Positions 51,723-64,000 of a stretch of DNA of 64,000 bases are shown piece after piece. Under the pieces are notes generated by a model, which worked only from the letters and a program-made list of their open reading frames with translations, had not been told where the DNA came from and did not search any database. Within the stretch, counting starts at the first letter, position 1. Each line of letters starts with the position of its first letter. Source of the stretch: a virus (Duplodnaviria; Caudoviricetes); the IMG/VR virus record IMGVR_UViG_2873063797_000001, positions 1 to 64,000 of that record; one strand, 5' to 3'. The position numbers were made by a program, and so were the translations under genes.

Positions 51723-52975
51723 GCGGCGGCCTCCAAGGCCACGCCGACCGGGATGCCAGTAGCGGCCGAGACGACGTGCGCCGCCAAGAGCGGCGGAACG
51801 GCGTTGCCGACCTGCTCGAACTGCTTCGTCTTCGTGCCCTGGAACGGGTAGTCCGGGCGGAACGACTGAAGGACAGCGGCCTCGGCGACGGTGATGCGCA
51901 CGGTGTCGGGGCTGGCGAACTGGGACTCGCCGCCGGCGTCGCGGTTGCGGTGGCCGGGCGGCGCGATCCGGTTGGTGGCGCACACCGTGGTGGCCGGGCG
52001 CTGCTGGACCCACTCAATTCGAGCCGAATTGTTGCCGAAAGCCATGGTCGGCGCGGGCTCCTCAATGCCGCGTATCGCGGCCCGCTCCTGGTTGCCGTTG
52101 CGCAGCACCCACTGCCCACCCGACTTCGAGGTGAAGGCGGGCGCCGGCGCGGTGTACGGGTCGGCGGTCTGGCGGCTGCCGTCGGCGCGCTGGTCGCGAT
52201 TCGTGTGGAGCACCCACGAACGGGCCTTCTCAGTGAGCGCCCACGACGGCCGGTCGGCGGGAAACTCGTTCCCCCCAGCAGTCTTCCGGTCCCCGCGGGT
52301 GTTCACGGTCAGCCCCTCGACCCATCCGAGCGCTTCCGCCATGGACACCCACTGCTCCAGGCGCTCACCGAACAAGTCGTCCGCCGGCTCCTTCGCATGC
52401 GTCGGCGCCGGCGCGGTCACCGGCCGAACCCGGGAGGCGATGAGGATCGCCCGCTTGCGGGTCTGCGGGACGCCGTAGTCGGCAGAGTTGAGGACCCCCA
52501 CCCACGTGCTGTAGCCCCACTGCTGGAGGTACAGAGCGTACTGACGCCAAAGCGGGAGAACGTCGGGGACTTCCTCCATGCACACCCACTCGGGGCGGAG
52601 GTCGTACAGCCAGCGCATCGGCTCCGCGGCCAGCAACGACCGTTCGTCCTTGCACTGGGCGACGAGTTCGGCCCGACTGTCCCGGCCGTGCGCCAGGTCG
52701 TGGGCCGCCTGGTGCACCAGCGGCTGGTCCGCCAGGCCCCCACGCTTCCCCGCCCGGGACCACGCCTGGCACGGCGGTGACGCGATCAGACCCTTGATCC
52801 GACCCACGAACGGGGAGGTGGGGTAGGCGGCGACGTCGGTCTGGATGACAGGGTGCCCGGCGGCGTGCGCGGTCAGGCACGCCGCCCGGTCCCACTCAAG
52901 ACCGATGTCCGTCAGCCCCAGCAGGCGCAGGCCCTCAGACCAGCCCCGCGGACCGGCGAACAGGTCGACGATCAC
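51719..52975 (-). CDS. C5 cytosine DNA methyltransferase with an expanded target-recognition region
   Basis: DLFAGPRG, ASPPCQ, EEV, PQTRKR, LQSF, QVGNAVPP. Confidence 0.92.
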   Translation of the reverse strand: MIVDLFAGPRGWSEGLRLLGLTDIGLEWDRAACLTAHAAGHPVIQTDVAAYPTSPFVGRIKGLIASPPCQAWSRAGKRGGLADQPLVHQAAHDLAHGRDSRAELVAQCKDERSLLAAEPMRWLYDLRPEWVCMEEVPDVLPLWRQYALYLQQWGYSTWVGVLNSADYGVPQTRKRAILIASRVRPVTAPAPTHAKEPADDLFGERLEQWVSMAEALGWVEGLTVNTRGDRKTAGGNEFPADRPSWALTEKARSWVLHTNRDQRADGSRQTADPYTAPAPAFTSKSGGQWVLRNGNQERAAIRGIEEPAPTMAFGNNSARIEWVQQRPATTVCATNRIAPPGHRNRDAGGESQFASPDTVRITVAEAAVLQSFRPDYPFQGTKTKQFEQVGNAVPPLLAAHVVSAATGIPVGVALEAAA

Positions 52976-54204
52976 GCGGCGCTCCTCTCCGTGTCGCCGC
53001 CCTGTGCGGCCTTCTGCTGCTTCACAGCCGTCTCCAGCAGGTCCAGCAGCTCACGGAACGGCATCTGCTCCCTTGCCGGCGGCGGGCCCTCCACGTACAG
53101 GTCGATGACTTCCTTCACCGTCGCCTCACCACGAATCTGGGTGAGCGCATCAGCGTTCATGCGCATGTCGATCGCCTGGAGATACAGCCTGTCCAGGACC
53201 TCGTCATCACCACCCTCAGCAAGAACCTCGGCCTCCACGATCCCGCCGTTGCGGGGCCCGTCGTACGCGGCCTCGGCGGCGGGGTCGATGTCGGAGGGCT
53301 CCGGGTCGCCAGACTCGGCGGCGGCCATGGCTTCGGCCCGGGAGGCGACCTGGCGACCGATGGCGGTGATCTGGTCGAGATACTCCGTCGGGGCACCAGC
53401 GTTCTTCGCCTCCTGCCACAGGGCGCGGACCGCGTCGGCGGACTTGGCGGCCTGGGCCTCGGCAAGGTAGTCGCGGCGCTCCCGCTGCACCGGCGGCGTG
53501 TTCGGCGTCGACTGCACAACGCTCATACGCGGCTGCTCCTGGTCGGCGTTGTCCGCCTGCGCCATCTCCTCGGCCGTGTAGACGCCGGCGAGGTCGTGCG
53601 GGAACGCCTTCCGAAGCGCCAACGCTTCGGCGCACTTGGCGATCTGCCCGGCGGGCATCTTTGCCCACAGGCCCTTGGGGTTGCCGTCCGGAAACGTCTG
53701 CACGTACTCGCGGAACGTGGCGACCGCGGAGAAACGCTGCCCATTGCGGACCACGGTCACCTTTGCGGCCGCCGGCGGCTCGTCGGCCAGCCACACGTCA
53801 CGCCACCGACCGGACGGGTCGCACCACACGGTGTCCTCGTAGCCGTACGTGCCGCCGGTCTGCGCGGTCACGCGCTGGGCGATGACGCGGTACCCGTCGA
53901 TGCCGGTCTGCGGCGTGTAGACCTCGCGGCCGTCCTTCTTGCTGAACCGGCCGATGAGGTAGATCTGCCGGGAGAACGGGTCGAGGCCGGTGCGCTGGCA
54001 CAGGTGCAGGAAGCCGGACAGTTCGGCGGCGGTCACCTGGTCCTTGATGCCGGATTGGCGGAGGACGGCGGCCTGCTCGGGCGTCCAGTTGGTCTGGTCG
54101 GGGCGGATGGCGAGGGCGCCGCCGGTCTTGGTGGGCTGGTTTTGGGTGTGCGAGGTGGGGCCCTCCGCCGTGCTGCTGGCGAGGGCCTCGGTGGTAGCAA
54201 CCAC
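52972..54204 (-). CDS. bet: Bet/RecT-family ssDNA annealing protein
   Basis: FLHLCQRTGLDPF..QIY...QTGIDGYR..AQR...W.KMP..QIAKCAEALALRKAFP. Confidence 0.92.
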   Translation of the reverse strand: MVATTEALASSTAEGPTSHTQNQPTKTGGALAIRPDQTNWTPEQAAVLRQSGIKDQVTAAELSGFLHLCQRTGLDPFSRQIYLIGRFSKKDGREVYTPQTGIDGYRVIAQRVTAQTGGTYGYEDTVWCDPSGRWRDVWLADEPPAAAKVTVVRNGQRFSAVATFREYVQTFPDGNPKGLWAKMPAGQIAKCAEALALRKAFPHDLAGVYTAEEMAQADNADQEQPRMSVVQSTPNTPPVQRERRDYLAEAQAAKSADAVRALWQEAKNAGAPTEYLDQITAIGRQVASRAEAMAAAESGDPEPSDIDPAAEAAYDGPRNGGIVEAEVLAEGGDDEVLDRLYLQAIDMRMNADALTQIRGEATVKEVIDLYVEGPPPAREQMPFRELLDLLETAVKQQKAAQGGDTERSAA

Positions 54205-57060: not shown

Positions 57061-57918
57061 ATGGAACCCCGCGCACTCCTCGACACCTGGCTGGACACCG
57101 CAACCAACCTGCGATCCTCCAGCCGCATCGAGTACCGGCGCGAGGTCACCCGCTGGCTCACCTGGTGCGAAGATCAGCGTCCCCCGGTCAACCCCTACCG
57201 GTGCGGCATCGAGGACATCGCCGCCTGGGCCGGCACCCTCCTCACCGACCACCTGGACGGACGGCCCTTCGACGGGCCCGACGCCCTCACCCACGTCGCC
57301 GAACACCATCGCGCCGCCGCGTTGACCCACGACCGGCGGATCACCGCCATCACCCAGTACTACGAAGCCGCCAAAGACCGCGGCGCCATCCGCCTCGCCC
57401 CCGACCTCACCATGCTCCGCTCCGGCGTCGACCGCGACGCCGGCACCCCCCGCCGGCTCACCCCCATGGAACGCAACGTCCTCCTCATCTGCATCGGCAT
57501 GTGGGGACCCGACCGCGCCCGCCACTACCGCCGCGACCGCCTCATCGCCTACCTCCTCCTCGAGGGCCTGCGCCCGGCGGAGGTCGCCCGCGTCGACATG
57601 CGCCACCTCTACGACCTCGGCACCGGCGTCTGGGAAGTCCGCGCCCCCGACTACGAGTACGAAGCCGTCGGCAAGAAACACGTCCTGGAGCCGCTGACCG
57701 TGGCCGCGCTGATCGAATACCTGCCGCACCGCATCAAGCCCGCCGACGGAGTCCACACCCTCATCACCGTCCAAGGCGGCGGCCCCCTCGACTCCGGATA
57801 CCCCAACCTGATCATCCGGCAGATCGCCGCCCTCCACCCCCTCCTCGCACAGCGCACCCCACCCGTCACCGCCGACACCATCGCCCACACCGGGTACTGG
57901 GAGACGCCCCCCGGCTGA
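57061..57918 (+). CDS. Tyrosine-recombinase-like protein, C-terminally degenerate
   Basis: SAM-like N-terminus, LEGLRPAEV retained; HxxR replaced by ADTIAH; no canonical catalytic Tyr helix. Confidence 0.75.
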   Translation: MEPRALLDTWLDTATNLRSSSRIEYRREVTRWLTWCEDQRPPVNPYRCGIEDIAAWAGTLLTDHLDGRPFDGPDALTHVAEHHRAAALTHDRRITAITQYYEAAKDRGAIRLAPDLTMLRSGVDRDAGTPRRLTPMERNVLLICIGMWGPDRARHYRRDRLIAYLLLEGLRPAEVARVDMRHLYDLGTGVWEVRAPDYEYEAVGKKHVLEPLTVAALIEYLPHRIKPADGVHTLITVQGGGPLDSGYPNLIIRQIAALHPLLAQRTPPVTADTIAHTGYWETPPG

Positions 57919-57956: not shown

Positions 57957-58181
57957 ATGACGCTGGTAGCGGGCGAGTACGAGTTCACGTGCGACGAATG
58001 CGACGGGGACGGGAACCTGCAATACATCCGCATTACGACCGAGGGCGACGACGAGCCCGAACTCGTCTGGGACAAGTGCGACGACTGCCACGGCGAAGGC
58101 CGGCTCCTGGTCGACGAGGAAGAAGCGGCCGAGAAGATCCGCTGGGGGCAGACCCCGACACGCACCCCTGCCGCCGCCTAG
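57957..58181 (+). CDS. DnaJ-type zinc-finger small protein
   Basis: CDECDGDG ... CDDCHGEG. Confidence 0.75.
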   Translation: MTLVAGEYEFTCDECDGDGNLQYIRITTEGDDEPELVWDKCDDCHGEGRLLVDEEEAAEKIRWGQTPTRTPAAA

Positions 58182-59254
58182 TCTTCGTCCCCGCCCGGAA
58201 GACGCTCGGCAATTCGGGCGGCGATGCGGTAGCCGGGGCTGTTGTCGAGGCGGCCGCGCCGGCGGTCGTAGCGTCGGGTGGTCCGCGGGTCCTTGTGGTC
58301 GGCGAAGTCCTGCACGTGGTGGAGCTTGGCGTCGGGCGCGTCCAGGGCGTGGGTGACGGCGTCGTGCTTGAGGACGTGCGGGTGGAAGGTGGCCGCGTTG
58401 GCGATACCCGCCTTGGCCGCTAGGCGCCGCACGAGGCGCCACACGTAGGCCGGGTCCAGTGGGTTGCCGTTGCGGGTCTGGAACAGTGGTCCCGTGGTGC
58501 GGCCCGCGAGGTAGACGTCGATGGCGTGCCCGGTGGCCGGTGGGACGACCTTCGGTTTGCGGCGGCCACCCTTCAGGCGGACGTTGAGAATGCGGTGCCC
58601 CTTGTCGTAGCCGAGGTCGTCGGCTTGGGCGCCGAGGGCGGAGTCGAGGCGTAGCGCCACGGTGTAGATGGCGAGCAGGAGGGCGTAGGAGCGGGGTCCG
58701 TCCTCGTAGGCCGCGGCGAGCAGGCGCGCGGACTCTTCTTCGGTGCTGCCTTGGGTGTCGGAGCCGTCCTGGTCCAACTCGGGGCGGGCGACGAGGTCGA
58801 AGGGGTCGATGCCGTCTCCGAGGGCACGGACCGCGTACTTGTGGAAGCTGGAGCAGGCGGAGAGCAGGTTGGCGCGGGCGGCGTCGGAGCGGGGCGGACC
58901 GGTGGGGGCCTTCTGCCCGCGGTGGCCGCCCTTGACGGGGACCATGGTGGGTGCGGTTTCGAGGTGGCGGGAGAACGCTTCGGCGAGGGGGAAGCGGGCT
59001 TGGAGCGGGTGGGTGCCGGTCTCGCGGGCGTAGGTGTCCCACACCCGGTATTGGCGGACGTACGTCTGCCGGGTGTTCTTCGTCTTCTGCCGGGCAATCC
59101 AGGCGCCTACGAGACCGGGGTATGGGTCGCCTGCCGGGTAGTGGCCAGCCAACTCGGTGGCGAAGTCGAGGGCTTCGGAGGGCCAGTCGTCGGCGGCGCT
59201 GCGGGTGCGCGCGGCGAGTTGGCCGCCGCGCGCTCTCGGGACGAGCTCGGTCAT
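58178..59254 (-). CDS. Tyrosine recombinase/integrase
   Basis: VALRLDS (R), LKGG (K), HPHVLKH, FADHKDPRTTRRYD (H, Y). Confidence 0.88.
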   Translation of the reverse strand: MTELVPRARGGQLAARTRSAADDWPSEALDFATELAGHYPAGDPYPGLVGAWIARQKTKNTRQTYVRQYRVWDTYARETGTHPLQARFPLAEAFSRHLETAPTMVPVKGGHRGQKAPTGPPRSDAARANLLSACSSFHKYAVRALGDGIDPFDLVARPELDQDGSDTQGSTEEESARLLAAAYEDGPRSYALLLAIYTVALRLDSALGAQADDLGYDKGHRILNVRLKGGRRKPKVVPPATGHAIDVYLAGRTTGPLFQTRNGNPLDPAYVWRLVRRLAAKAGIANAATFHPHVLKHDAVTHALDAPDAKLHHVQDFADHKDPRTTRRYDRRRGRLDNSPGYRIAARIAERLPGGDED

Positions 59255-60175: not shown

Positions 60176-61009
60176 CTAGCGGGCCGGATACAGGACGTCG
60201 AACTCTGGCGGCTCCCACCGGCCGAAGGTCGACACGTCGTCCTCGGTGAAGTCGGACGCCCCGCGAAGGGTCACTCTTCCCATGCGGAGACTTCGGAAGC
60301 TGATCCCCGGAGCTTCCATGCCCGCTGCTTTGGCTCGGCTGCGCACGACAATGTCGATGCCACCGGGCAGCAGAGCCTTCGCGGCGATGTTCCCCCAGCG
60401 GTCGATCTGCCGGAACAAGGGTCCTTCGGCCTGGCCGAGGCCGGCCAGCGTTCCCAGCCAGCCATCGGTGAACCTGAGCACGCTGGTCGTCTGGTCGCCG
60501 CTGTCACGCACAAAGACGCTGGTCTCTGCTCCAGGTAGCCGGACCCGGACGCCGTCGTGCATCAGGTGTACGGCGTCGGCCGTGCACCGTGACAGCTCCC
60601 CTGCCTGGTTGGCCGTGCCCCATGCCAACGTGAGAAGGCAGCCATCCCGCAGGCCAGCAGGATCGTCACGGCAGGTGGACAGCATGGCCCGCAGCCCAGC
60701 CTCGTCGATCGGCACGCTTTTCGGGGTGCGCCGGGTGGACGACGACTCCCACTCCATCTTCCAGCGGGTACACATCTCCCGAGTCAACGTGGTGTCGAAC
60801 CAATGCCCGTGGGGCTGCCAGGTTCGTATTGCGTACCAAGCCAGATCCACCGTGTTAGGGGACATCCGGCGCACCTTGATCAGGTACTCGATGTAGGCGG
60901 AAAACGCTTCCATCGTGCAGGGCCTAGGGCTTTCGCTCCGGCTCTCACACCAGTCCTGGAACTTACGACGCTGGAAGTCGTAGGCCCGCTGCGTCTCTGG
61001 CGTCGTCAT
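60176..61009 (-). CDS. Cre-like tyrosine-recombinase homologue with substituted catalytic residues
   Basis: RDGCLLTLAWGTANQAGEL, PLFRQIDRWG, SFRSLRMG, FGRW. Confidence 0.75.
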   Translation of the reverse strand: MTTPETQRAYDFQRRKFQDWCESRSESPRPCTMEAFSAYIEYLIKVRRMSPNTVDLAWYAIRTWQPHGHWFDTTLTREMCTRWKMEWESSSTRRTPKSVPIDEAGLRAMLSTCRDDPAGLRDGCLLTLAWGTANQAGELSRCTADAVHLMHDGVRVRLPGAETSVFVRDSGDQTTSVLRFTDGWLGTLAGLGQAEGPLFRQIDRWGNIAAKALLPGGIDIVVRSRAKAAGMEAPGISFRSLRMGRVTLRGASDFTEDDVSTFGRWEPPEFDVLYPAR

Positions 61010-61626
61010 GCAGCACCTCCAGATTGGGCGTTCCACAGCAGGGCGACGACGGTTGATTCGTACGGCCAGCGCGCCACTCCGCCGTGCTTGATCAGGTGTA
61101 GAAGGGTCCGGCTGGGGAGGGTCGCCCCAACCTCCAAGGGGACGCAACCGGGAGGAATCTCGCAGGGGCCTATCTCGGCCCGACTGCGTCCGTCATCGGT
61201 TTGCGTAGGTGCCGAACCAGTTGAGCGCTGCGCCCGAATGGGCTGAGTCCAGCACAGTTCCCCGTCAGCATCCGCTCCGGCTTGGTCGGCGTTCAATCGT
61301 GCGGAGAAGGCAGGGTGCAGTCGTTTCAGCCGCTCGGCGTTCGTCTCTCGTGCGGCGTCGGCTAGCGGTATCTCCCCTACCTCCAGAAGCGATACGGCGA
61401 ATTCGCCCGACATTAGGCCGGTGTGCACGCGCAGGAAGGCCGCAGCCTGCACCGGGGGCCAATAGGCAGCCCGGCGGAGCGTCTGGCCGATGCGATCCCT
61501 GTATGCGGCGGGTATCCGGTCACCGCGCAGATCCTGGCGGGTCTGAGCCAAAGCCTGCGCGGCGCTTGGGCTGTAGAGCATCTGGTCCAGCAGGCTGCCG
61601 GCCATCCGTTCGTGCAGTGTCCTCAT
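61006..61626 (-). CDS. Hypothetical protein
   Basis: GGAAGGA RBS; ATGA coupling. Confidence 0.6.
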   Translation of the reverse strand: MRTLHERMAGSLLDQMLYSPSAAQALAQTRQDLRGDRIPAAYRDRIGQTLRRAAYWPPVQAAAFLRVHTGLMSGEFAVSLLEVGEIPLADAARETNAERLKRLHPAFSARLNADQAGADADGELCWTQPIRAQRSTGSAPTQTDDGRSRAEIGPCEIPPGCVPLEVGATLPSRTLLHLIKHGGVARWPYESTVVALLWNAQSGGAA

Positions 61627-61719
61627 GCCCGTCCTTCCGGAGTGCAGACACATTGGAGTAGTTGAGATACTCTAAGCGTAGCAGTAGTCAAGCTACTCCG
61701 CCCCGCCTACGCTGAACCC

Positions 61720-61941
61720 ATGGACCTGACCGGCTACCTGACCTCCGACGAAGCAGCAGAACGGCTCGGCATCAACCGCCAGAGCCTGTACAACCTGGCC
61801 AACCGCTCACCGGATTTCCCGAAGCCCAAGAAGGTTGGGCGGACGTCCCTCTGGCCAGAGCACGGCGTAGACGAGTGGCGCGAGAAGCACCCGAAGCGAC
61901 AGACGAGAAAGGGGACAGAGGATGCCGACCAAGCCCCGTAA
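61720..61941 (+). CDS. AlpA/excisionase-like HTH protein, probably leaderless
   Basis: YLTSDEAAERLGINRQSLY...FPKP..VGR..LW; TACGCT 6 nt before ATG. Confidence 0.85.
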   Translation: MDLTGYLTSDEAAERLGINRQSLYNLANRSPDFPKPKKVGRTSLWPEHGVDEWREKHPKRQTRKGTEDADQAP

Positions 61942-62167
61942 GCCGTGGCGTGTGATCGTGACGGGTCCGGACGTGCGTGCCGAGTCGGACCACACCAGCG
62001 AGGCCAAGGCGTACGCGCTGGTTCGTGCCTCCCTCGGTGAGGAAAGCCCCGCCGACACTGCGCGGGTTGAGCAGTGGGAGGGCGGCCGGTGGTGGCACTT
62101 CGAGACCGTGCGCGCCGACGAGATCCGCGCGGCCCAGGCCGCCATCCGCAACATCGACGAGAAGTGA
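61922..62167 (+). CDS. Array gene 1 (ends ..DEK*)
   Basis: GGGGA RBS; stop lies inside the junction repeat. Confidence 0.7.
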   Translation: MPTKPRKPWRVIVTGPDVRAESDHTSEAKAYALVRASLGEESPADTARVEQWEGGRWWHFETVRADEIRAAQAAIRNIDEK

Positions 62168-62178
62168 GGACACCGACC

Positions 62179-62469
62179 ATGCTGACCCTGCACCCGATCA
62201 CCGGCGGCATCCGCGACGGACGCCACCAGCAGTACCCCACCCCCAACCTCCCGGCCCGCCCGGTCGCTTCGCAGGCGGAAGCTGAGGAGTCCGCCGTCCG
62301 TCTGTTCCGCGCCTACGGGGCGATCAGCTACCTGCGGCTCACCGACAGCGCTGGGGAGGAGGTCCGGGAGTACCGTCGCGGCGACTTCTTCCAGTCCACG
62401 TCGCCCCTACGGGACGTACACCGCCGCGTGGTCGACCAGGACCTCGGGTGCCGCGCCACCGAGAAGTGA
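62179..62469 (+). CDS. Array gene 2 (ends ..ATEK*)
   Basis: Bounded by junction repeats. Confidence 0.75.
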   Translation: MLTLHPITGGIRDGRHQQYPTPNLPARPVASQAEAEESAVRLFRAYGAISYLRLTDSAGEEVREYRRGDFFQSTSPLRDVHRRVVDQDLGCRATEK

Positions 62470-62480
62470 GGGAACCGACC

Positions 62481-62657
62481 ATGAGCGAGATGGAGTCACG
62501 GATCGCGTCGCTGGAAGCAACGAACAGCGACCTGCGGAGCGAGAACCGGGAGATCCGAAGGGAGATCTTGCGCGCGCTGCGGTTCATCGAGAAGGGTGAC
62601 GTCGGCTCCGCGCAGACCCTCATGCACCGCCTGTCCCTCAGCGTCGCCGAGAAGTGA
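62481..62657 (+). CDS. Array gene 3, coiled coil (ends ..VAEK*)
   Basis: Bounded by junction repeats. Confidence 0.75.
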   Translation: MSEMESRIASLEATNSDLRSENREIRREILRALRFIEKGDVGSAQTLMHRLSLSVAEK

Positions 62658-62664
62658 GGCCATC

Positions 62665-62835
62665 ATGAGCACTCCGACCGAACTCCGGACCCGTGCCGCC
62701 GAGCTGGAGAACCGCGTGCCTCCGGTCACGGCCGGCCCCCGTACCGACGACGAGCGGATGTGGCTGGAGAAGGCCGCCGCCCTCCGCGACGAGGCCGACC
62801 AGCTCGACGCCGCCGACCGCGCCACCGAGAAGTGA
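62665..62835 (+). CDS. Array gene 4 (ends ..ATEK*)
   Basis: Bounded by junction repeats. Confidence 0.75.
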   Translation: MSTPTELRTRAAELENRVPPVTAGPRTDDERMWLEKAAALRDEADQLDAADRATEK

Positions 62836-62846
62836 GGACACCGATC

Positions 62847-63008
62847 ATGGCCTACACCGCCTACATGCCGCCCGTGGGTGGTGGCAAGCAGAGCCACCCC
62901 GAGATCACCGACCACTGCCGCCCTGACAACGAGCCCACCCACCCGGAGCACGACTACCCGACTGCCGGTCCCGCGCGCTGCAATCGCTGCGGCGCCACCG
63001 AGAAGTGA
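62847..63008 (+). CDS. Array gene 5, His/Cys-containing (ends ..ATEK*)
   Basis: Bounded by junction repeats. Confidence 0.75.
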   Translation: MAYTAYMPPVGGGKQSHPEITDHCRPDNEPTHPEHDYPTAGPARCNRCGATEK

Positions 63009-63018
63009 GGACACGACC

Positions 63019-63201
63019 ATGACCACGAGCTGGCCGGAGCGGGTGCGACTCCCGCGCGGCCGCCACACTCACGCCGTCGGCTACGCGGCTGGCCACGCCG
63101 ACCGCGTCACCGCCTGCGCCCGGAACGCCGAACCCGGGGACTTCCTGGACGACGACAGCCCCATCACCTGCCCCGCCTGCCAACGCGTCACCGAGAAGTG
63201 A
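63019..63201 (+). CDS. Array gene 6, His/Cys-containing (ends ..VTEK*)
   Basis: Bounded by junction repeats. Confidence 0.75.
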   Translation: MTTSWPERVRLPRGRHTHAVGYAAGHADRVTACARNAEPGDFLDDDSPITCPACQRVTEK

Positions 63202-63212
63202 GGACACCGACC

Positions 63213-64000
63213 ATGGGACGAGAGATCCGCCGCGTACCGCTCGACTTCGAATGGCCGCTCAACAAGGTCTGGGAGGGCTTCCTGATGCCCGACCGCTTCG
63301 ACGAAGTCGACTGCTCCGACTGCAAGAACGGCTACTCGCCGCAGGCCCAGAACTTGTATGACCTCTGGTACGGCTACCTGCCGTTCGACCCGGCCAGCAC
63401 CGGGTCGACGCCGTGGCGCCACGACAGCCCAGGCGTGAGGGCGTTCGCCGAGCGCAACGTCACCCAGGCGCCGGACTACTACGGCAGCGGCGAGGCCGCC
63501 ATCGTGCGCGAAGGTCAGCGGCTGGCGAGCCTGTGGAACGGCCAGTGGTCCCACCACCTCTCCCAAGAGGACGTGGATGCGCTGGTCGCCGCTGACCGGC
63601 TTCGCGACTTCACTCACACCTGGAGCCGCGAGGACGGCTGGCAGCCGAAGGAACCGTCGGTCGCACCGACGGCCGCCGAGGTCAACGAGTGGTCACTGCG
63701 CGGCATGGGACACGACAGCATCAACGCCCACGTGGTGATCGAAGCCCGCTGCGAGCGCGAGGGTGTCGAGACCCGGTGCCCGACCTGCAAGGGCCACGGC
63801 AGTATGGAGAAGTACGAGGGACAGCGCGCCGAGGCCGAAGCGTGGGAGCCCACGGACCCGCCGAAGGGCGACGGCTGGCAGCTCTGGGAGACCGTGAGCG
63901 AAGGCTCGCCCGTCAGCCCCGTGTTCGCGACAGCCGATGATCTGGCCGGTTGGATGTCTGACCCGGAGCGCGGCGACCGTTGGGTGCCGGGCGACGTGGC
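63213..64000 (+). CDS. Array gene 7, phage hypothetical protein (partial, runs off the window)
   Basis: MGREIRRVPLDFEWP...CPTCKGHG...WQLWETVSEGSPVSPVF; open to the window end. Confidence 0.8.
   Translation, partial: MGREIRRVPLDFEWPLNKVWEGFLMPDRFDEVDCSDCKNGYSPQAQNLYDLWYGYLPFDPASTGSTPWRHDSPGVRAFAERNVTQAPDYYGSGEAAIVREGQRLASLWNGQWSHHLSQEDVDALVAADRLRDFTHTWSREDGWQPKEPSVAPTAAEVNEWSLRGMGHDSINAHVVIEARCEREGVETRCPTCKGHGSMEKYEGQRAEAEAWEPTDPPKGDGWQLWETVSEGSPVSPVFATADDLAGWMSDPERGDRWVPGDV

Follow-up and report, generated by a model that had tools for sequence, protein, structure and literature searches.

Near the end of the viral DNA stretch examined here (IMG/VR record IMGVR_UViG_2873063797_000001; the window, by which we mean this whole stretch of 64,000 nucleotides) lies an array of seven co-oriented genes on the + strand (g1 to g7: 81, 96, 58, 56, 53, 60 and 297 aa), headed by an HTH_17 gene and joined to one another by six copies of a short conserved sequence, the junction. 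The window corresponds to positions 1-64,000 of contig C2 (89,658 bp), the second contig of an 8,393,598-bp genome, and the replicon is a pZL12/pCQ3-type Streptomyces phage-plasmid of 89.7 kb. The locus is best explained as the hypervariable accessory-gene array of this phage-plasmid: related elements carry the same junction between other genes, and homology between elements breaks at the junctions.

The core of the junction is an exact 11-mer, GAGAAGTGAGG, found at 62159, 62461, 62649, 62827, 63000 and 63193, always on the + strand; these six copies are the sole exact ones in the whole genome. At up to one mismatch the window holds eight copies against 0.98 expected from window shuffles, and the relaxed core matches elsewhere in it (13311, 22028 and 44310) are isolated and look like chance or ordinary ribosome-binding sites (RBS). 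Each core holds the TGA of the upstream open reading frame (ORF), then GG, and leads through an A/C-rich spacer of 5-9 nt, usually 9 nt, to the ATG of the next ORF. A preliminary description, made from the letters alone, had pictured six direct repeats joining the stop of one gene to the start of the next, and this picture is confirmed. Junction 4 alone is covered by many matches of 41-52 nt (91-95% identity) in other arrays. An inverted-repeat search of 61900-64000 returned none at any junction and no attC-like hairpins, and the junction sequence is not palindromic; a scan of the locus for consensus promoters and terminators detected no promoter- or terminator-like site, which is the expected outcome for Streptomyces, and an Rfam search at a relaxed threshold gave a chance miRNA match only.

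The six genes that precede a junction all end in EK-stop. The ending (A/V)TEK that had been ascribed to all of them is found in four, g1 and g3 departing from it (Table 1). That the genes are mutually unrelated was equally well seen: pairwise comparison of the seven, with the shared tail removed, detects no significant similarity. Divergence from homologues is concentrated at third codon positions for most array genes, g1 among them, so that the ORFs look like real genes. The g1 family is present in nine arrays, at the first, an internal or the last position. Pfam and PHROGs searches gave no matches for the seven cassettes or for eight common cassette families from relatives. The last gene, g7, has 2,815 homologues at E<=1e-10, all hypothetical or unnamed, including DNA-level matches in Caulobacter and Microbacterium jumbo phages, and conserved Cys pairs; in the protein atlas it falls in viral hypothetical clusters only, with no Pfam match, and a PDB comparison of its AlphaFold model (pLDDT 77) gave nothing at E<=0.001. 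The array had been thought possibly to run on past the window. It closes with g7, whose stop lies at contig position 64106, 106 nt beyond the window, and is followed by a hairpin and a convergent dCTP-deaminase-like gene, annotated dcd at the syntenic position in relatives. The hairpin (contig C2 about 64118-64152; about 2429-2461 in the related locus L006) has a perfect 13-bp GC-rich stem (GGGGCCCCGGCTG / CAGCCGGGGCCCC) and a 7-nt loop, is without a T-tract and is plain from the sequence itself; it probably terminates transcription from both sides.

In the pZL12/pCQ3-type phage-plasmids the junction is a family hallmark. Across related loci (labelled L and a number), 44 non-redundant arrays yielded 150 junctions after redundancy removal, with up to nine in a single array. 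An 18-mer, ACCGAGAAGTGAGGACAC, occurs in 28 stretches of a species-representative genome collection (21 Streptomyces and 1 Streptacidiphilus; many on 78-95-kb contigs) and in 30 IMG/VR stretches, several of them on 82-92-kb contigs; a 39-nt junction query matches 22 Streptomyces plasmids and, among 50,697 GenBank phage records, gave one partial 19-nt match, in a Microbacterium phage. Loci found by gene homology alone (L007-L010, L012 and L040-L042) carry the same junction between other genes. The consensus over junctions is GCC ACC GAG AAG TGA GG ACACCGACC ATG, about 29 nt long. Its spacer measures exactly 9 nt in 97 of the 150 junctions (65%) and reads ACACCGACC in 42, and the commonest tails are TTEK and ATEK. 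The ORFs downstream of junctions have a median length of 79 aa, 82% of them being 100 aa or shorter. Conservation reaches beyond what an RBS needs, as had been claimed: over the 12 nt that flank the core on each side, unrelated junctions share 54-56% identity, compared with 30-33% at ordinary gene ends and starts of the same genome. Among the genes of the element the signal is confined to this operon, and no chromosomal gene uses the exact core. A search by motif string for a publication describing the junction returned unrelated papers only.

Not every copy lies between two genes. At least five arrays (L079, L080, L083, L086 and L100) end in an exact orphan core, ...EK-TGA-GG, with neither a start codon nor an ORF behind it; in L100 the orphan retains most of the spacer as well, and in several relatives a sequence similar to the g7/dcd hairpin stands after the orphan junction. 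In L007 (3565-3588, NZ_CP109461) the junction stop is mutated from TGA to GGA (GAGAAGGGAGG) and the upstream frame reads across the spacer and overlaps the next gene by an ATGA, suggesting that the junction module tolerates loss of the stop. The longest array, L066 (4942-7110, Streptomyces sp. NPDC090493), has nine junctions and carries cassette families 20 and 6 twice each; it sits on a large chromosomal contig (464 kb) and is therefore probably an integrated relative. Another array, L064, lies on a 1-Mb contig and has eight junctions.

Cassettes assort almost freely, nearly at random, between elements. Clustering resolves about 109 cassette families across the arrays. In family numbers the window array reads 0=14=30=2=10=8=16, and others read, for example, 5=14=24=2=31=7, 26=17=3=18=0=19, 0=53=10=12=100, 4=8=2, 104=8=19 and 5=4=3=46=16=85. 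When junctions from different arrays are paired, 163 pairs share the upstream family only, 119 the downstream family only and 4 both; over their 5-9 junctions the commonest families are followed by 5-9 different partners. Some families favour the first or the last place, giving a loose head-middle-tail order. The preliminary description had proposed junction-delimited cassettes and had set identical gene order in relatives against that idea; order differs clearly, and the cassettes are as delimited as proposed.

The ends of homology blocks point to the same units. Of the blastn blocks between arrays (at least 80% identity and at least 80 nt), 61% on the left and 65% on the right have their end no more than 25 nt from a junction core, against 12% for random positions. 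For each window cassette the best relative comes from a different element, and the blocks end at junctions (Table 1); the relative of g6 in plasmid NZ_CP109172 has different genes on both sides, and the dcd flank matches many elements. A g7 relative in NZ_CP108353 has no junction, and homology to it begins exactly at the ATG (63213). The viral contigs L077 and L079 share a 293-nt cassette at 99.3% identity, which runs from CGAGAAGTGAGG to ...GACACCGACC, immediately ahead of the start codon; the gene upstream of the cassette reaches only 70%, and the one downstream is without a match: judging by these sequences, this looks like a recent transfer of a single cassette with both ends inside the junction. 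The L077 homologue of g7 matches the window protein to within the last ~6 residues, where it reads ...DDEK-stop plus junction and the window protein ...SESQY-stop, indicating that the last codons travel with the junction and not with the protein family. A crossover-position test across junctions made no sharp crossover point visible; left flank and spacer each co-vary weakly with the adjoining gene family.

Table 1. Genes, junctions, homology blocks and recombination genes of the locus (window coordinates unless stated)
Feature	Position	Strand	Remarks
HTH_17 / excisionase-like DNA-binding gene	61720..61941	+	operon head; 3' end overlaps g1 start
g1, 81 aa	61922..62167	+	ends IDEK-stop; own Shine-Dalgarno sequence GAGAAAGGGGA upstream
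Junction 1	62153..62181	+	ATCGAC GAGAAGTGAGG ACACCGACC ATG; homology to L069/L101 (left flank + g1) ends at 62181
g2, 96 aa	62179..62469	+	ends ATEK-stop
Junction 2	62455..62483	+	GCCACC GAGAAGTGAGG GAACCGACC ATG
g3, 58 aa	62481..62657	+	coiled-coil-like; ends VAEK-stop
Junction 3	62643..62667	+	GTCGCC GAGAAGTGAGG CCATC ATG; short spacer
g4, 56 aa	62665..62835	+	ends ATEK-stop; common cassette family
Junction 4	62821..62849	+	GCCACC GAGAAGTGAGG ACACCGATC ATG
g5, 53 aa	62847..63008	+	Cys-containing; ends ATEK-stop
Junction 5	62994..63021	+	GCCACC GAGAAGTGAGG ACACGACC ATG
g6, 60 aa	63019..63201	+	CxxC near C-terminus; ends VTEK-stop
Junction 6	63187..63215	+	GTCACC GAGAAGTGAGG ACACCGACC ATG
g7, 297 aa	63213..64000, on to contig 64106	+	last array gene; ends SESQY-stop, without junction
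Block: left flank + HTH gene + g1	up to 62181		best relatives L101, 84%, and L069, 80%
Block: g2	62158-62487		L051, 87.9%, junction to junction
Block: g4	62647-62852		L080, 88.6%, junction to junction
Block: g5	62811-63016		L101, 85.0%
Block: g6	62994-63216		L008 (plasmid NZ_CP109172), 94.6%
Block: g7	from 63184		L077, 80%
Bet/RecT-family single-strand annealing protein	52972..54204	-	Pfam RecT E=3.6e-26; NCBIfam bet_lambda 96.2 bits (cut-off 76.95)
Xer-like tyrosine recombinase	58178..59254	-	Pfam Phage_integrase E=4.4e-14; conserved in the phage-plasmid family

The assignment of the replicon to the pZL12/pCQ3 type is based on its structural and maintenance genes, on plasmid matches and on the resemblance of pSLE1 to pZL12. 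Contig C2 codes for portal, major head, tape-measure and Dit proteins, DciA and two C5 methyltransferases, besides the Bet/RecT annealing protein, the Xer-like tyrosine recombinase and the HTH_17 gene. Parts of the locus have matches in 29 Streptomyces plasmids, many of which are circles of 85-94 kb; they include pCQ3 (NC_013449) and pSLE1 (LN831788), both with DNA or protein matches to contig C2, and pSLE1 has been reported as homologous and syntenic to the plasmid-phage pZL12 (PMC4487206). The gene at the operon head had been taken for AlpA/Xis-like: it matches Pfam HTH_17 (E=1.1e-08) and DNA-binding and excisionase PHROG families, and its AlpA match is below cut-off. It is kept with g1 as a single block in L069 and L101. 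In the 66-nt gap between the HTH gene and a divergent 215-aa gene (61006-61653) an imperfect inverted repeat, GGAGTAGTTGA ... TCAAGCTACTCC, is found at 61654-61699 and resembles an operator that would serve the accessory operon. Upstream of the HTH gene, in the region that corresponds to the Bet/RecT locus here, other elements have different single-strand annealing genes, ERF in pCQ3 (L010 1-746) and Rad52/Rad22 in NBC_01422 (L042 1-687), and the alternation of these with Bet/RecT looks like non-orthologous replacement. Of the three tyrosine-recombinase-like genes announced near the array, only the one at 58178-59254 reaches the Pfam Phage_integrase cut-off, with Xer-type models as its best profile matches; the gene at 60176-61147 has a weak SAM-like N-terminal domain match only, below the Phage_integrase cut-off, and that at 57061-57918 had no family match in the profile searches.

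How might such a short sequence keep unrelated genes both exchangeable and expressed? With moderate confidence, we think that the junction punctuates translation and at the same time offers a short homology through which cassettes are exchanged. In this genome the 16S rRNA terminates in ...CCUCCUUUCU, and the duplex between AGAAG-U-GAGG and the anti-Shine-Dalgarno (anti-SD) sequence amounts to -9.5 kcal/mol, equal to that of plain GGAGG and stronger than at the median gene start. Because AGAAG-U-GAGG pairs with the 16S tail, the EK-TGA-GG core can be explained as a stop nested in an extended SD. The rRNA is without bases left for the ACC/GCC codons upstream of the core, and the pairing leaves the spacer unexplained; it is because pairing cannot account for these two parts that we read the junction as punctuation and portable homology at once. 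In translation, the upstream UGA would lie inside the extended SD paired with the 16S tail and a fixed 9-nt A/C-rich spacer would lead on to the next AUG, so that an ORF set between two junctions would be terminated, and its neighbour initiated, whatever the neighbours are. In recombination, the same sequence at every boundary and in every related element would provide a portable homology of 12-29 nt, and in-register crossovers between the junctions of co-resident or co-infecting elements could swap, delete, duplicate or reorder single cassettes, perhaps to this day, leaving the reading frames undamaged. The likeliest catalyst would be the Bet/RecT annealing protein of the element rather than RecA. 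According to published values, Red-beta needs a pairing segment of at least 23-27 bp and RecA one of 31-34 bp (PMC3945230), and uninterrupted identity among the window junctions is 12-24 nt; an annealing protein is favoured because this identity is short and the Red-beta minimum is below that of RecA. Bet-mediated exchange is in this sense plausible.

Several observations weigh against this reading. Uninterrupted identity between two junctions has a median of 13 nt and reaches at least 23 nt in about 9% of pairs; most pairs are under even the Red-beta threshold, and exchange rates may be low as a consequence. To judge from identities of 74-95%, most exchanges seem old, and selection among the products would be expected to leave breakpoints at gene boundaries whatever the mechanism of recombination. 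Junctions are slightly more alike within an array (0.61) than between arrays (0.56), and because the difference is so slight functional constraint probably keeps much of their conservation, in which concerted evolution may have little part. Predicted mRNA accessibility speaks neither for nor against, the junctions being no more consistently open than other parts of the operon. Finally, many arrays were collected through the 18-mer search, which enriches for consensus junctions; since the loci found by gene homology carry the junction too, the feature itself is independent of that search.

The closest working analogue is the PeSL (promoter-early stem-loop) cassettes of T4-type phages, in which a repeated module lies between small ORFans in hyperplastic regions (Arbiol et al., 2010, PMC2839356; PMC4122927). 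In both systems a short conserved expression module stands between small ORFans. Recombination between PeSL copies shuffles, removes or adds genes one at a time with their expression signals intact, and the same would hold for the junction; repeat-bounded insertion, deletion or replacement of single ORFans is also how relatives differ here. The PeSL model in addition predicts mini-circles that hold one gene and one chimeric repeat (PMC2839356). The differences are that PeSLs are about 100 bp long and transcriptional (a sigma-70 promoter and a terminator stem-loop) and stand in the AT-rich intergenic DNA of lytic myoviruses that infect Gram-negative bacteria, whereas the junction, at about 29 nt a third of that length, is found inside one operon of a high-GC temperate phage-plasmid, extends over the final 2-4 codons of the gene before it, lacks any promoter or hairpin that we could find and, with its stop nested in an SD, spacer and ATG, would act on translation. 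It may thus be seen as the translational counterpart of the PeSL.

In behaviour the junction also resembles the start-associated sequences (SAS) of Cluster K mycobacteriophages, as these are set out in the SAS section of the paper that describes them (13-bp consensus GGGATAGGAGCCC; Pope et al., 2011, PMC3203893). According to that section, SAS are asymmetric repeats with an SD core a few nucleotides before the ATG, sometimes holding the upstream stop and always in one orientation; they precede non-structural genes only, of many unrelated families, are absent from the host genome and are conserved beyond rRNA pairing. The junction is likewise an asymmetric repeat with an SD core, of one orientation, shortly upstream of ATG starts of unrelated families, and the chromosome has no exact copy of its core. 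The sequences differ (GGGATAGGAGCCC versus the core GAGAAGTGAGG), as do the host genera; SAS are scattered over half the genome whereas junctions are stacked in one tandem array, and SAS have no fixed C-terminal codons, and half of them come with an additional inverted-repeat element (ESAS). The SAS section describes no shuffling of cassettes at these sites (PMC3203893). Since the resemblance is in behaviour only, we do not file the junction as a SAS member.

The idea of the modular phage genome is reportedly owed to Susskind and Botstein and to work on HK620. The conserved boundary ("linker") model of phage mosaicism has been largely set aside: such sequences have rarely been seen at boundaries and are not found at most of them (summarised in PMC3029335). 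The elements studied here have what that model describes: one short sequence recurs at module boundaries across related elements (150 junctions, 44 arrays), and recombinant joints lie inside it (61-65% of block ends near junctions, and the L077/L079 block); they depart from it in that the boundary sequences would double as a translation signal.

A somewhat unlikely alternative is that the junction is an expression signal and nothing else, like the SAS, and that mosaicism arises by illegitimate recombination and selection with no causal part for homology. The pairing of the core with the 16S tail over AGAAG.GAGG (-9.5 kcal/mol), the 9-nt spacing to the ATG fixed in 65% of junctions, the general features shared with SAS, for which the SAS section proposes a translation role (PMC3203893), and junction identities mostly under the published minimal pairing segments are all consistent with it, and the about equal likeness of junctions between and within arrays suggests a universal functional consensus. 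It leaves unexplained, however, the conservation of the upstream ACC/GCC codons, given that the rRNA ends at the partner of AGAAG, and of the ACACCGACC spacer, as well as the use of the signal in one operon of the element and in no chromosomal gene and the exact orphan cores that end at least five arrays with no start codon or gene behind. Illegitimate joins would moreover give variable spacing and gene fragments, whereas the observed spacing is uniform and the 99.3% block of L077/L079 starts and stops inside the conserved junction. A further alternative is a repeated binding site for a phage-encoded regulator, on DNA (like the asymmetric stoperators of Cluster A mycobacteriophages) or on mRNA (like the sites of the T4 translational repressor RegA), whose occupation would silence or time the whole accessory operon, recombination being a by-product; that orphan junctions keep the core is consistent with it. 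An asymmetric repeat in one orientation at every boundary of one operon, conserved beyond the need of an SD, would suit such a site, and the operon is headed by an HTH gene with an imperfect inverted repeat in its promoter region; yet no candidate binding protein was identified and the copies are confined to the variable array, not genome-wide as stoperators are, and we hold both the site and this mode of control to be improbable.

Enzymes that act on the junction itself have also to be weighed. In integrons the cassette boundaries are marked by attC sites, which are imperfect inverted repeats (about 57-141 bp) whose single strands fold into hairpins. The array is like an integron in its small co-oriented promoterless cassettes, which apparently share one promoter, in its repeated boundary element, about 29 nt long and of fixed structure, and in a content that is different in every relative, and a tyrosine recombinase gene lies 3 kb upstream beside two degenerate relatives. 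It has no attC-type imperfect palindromes, IntI or attI, its repeat overlaps coding sequence and RBS, and no junction has an inverted repeat or hairpin; the recombinase is Xer-like, scoring 19.2 bits against the integron integrase model TIGR02249 (cut-off 265), and is kept also in relatives whose arrays sit elsewhere or hold one gene, and neither half of the junction segregates sharply with its cassette. An integron-like platform, in which a tyrosine recombinase would insert and excise cassettes site-specifically at the junction, is thus very improbable, and this part of the preliminary description is not supported. A dedicated exchange system of another kind, with the junction as recognition site of a phage factor that excises and captures single-gene circles at high frequency, strikes us as quite doubtful, and so do the factors that could be named for it, Bet/RecT with a partner or the HTH protein with atypical tyrosine recombinases; if true, it would amount to a gene-capture platform of a new class, separate from integrons, with a programmable, translation-ready accessory repertoire, possibly of anti-defence genes. 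Hardly tenable at all is descent of the genes by tandem duplication from one ancestral small gene, with the junctions as remnants of duplicated ends. Common orientation, similar small sizes and shared ends, and a CxxC near the C-terminus of both g5 and g6, may call it to mind, but no two cassettes have significant similarity without the tail, on which ground we rejected paralogy, the about 109 distinct families recur with different neighbours in other elements, and g7 has relatives that lack a junction altogether as well as relatives in jumbo phages.

As an evolutionary pattern, the cassette reading has the support of these data. Punctuation and portable homology in one sequence could bear on an old open question, how joints form in mosaic phage genomes. 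This family of phage-plasmids has linker-type sequences at 150 boundaries, between which about 109 families of small genes assort almost freely, and in a tractable host it opens the linker model to direct tests. The junction is also a compact natural part for polycistronic operons in Streptomyces. For the phage-plasmids themselves, the arrays amount to a large pool of small, unannotated and rapidly exchanged phage genes, which are natural candidates for functions in host takeover or counter-defence.

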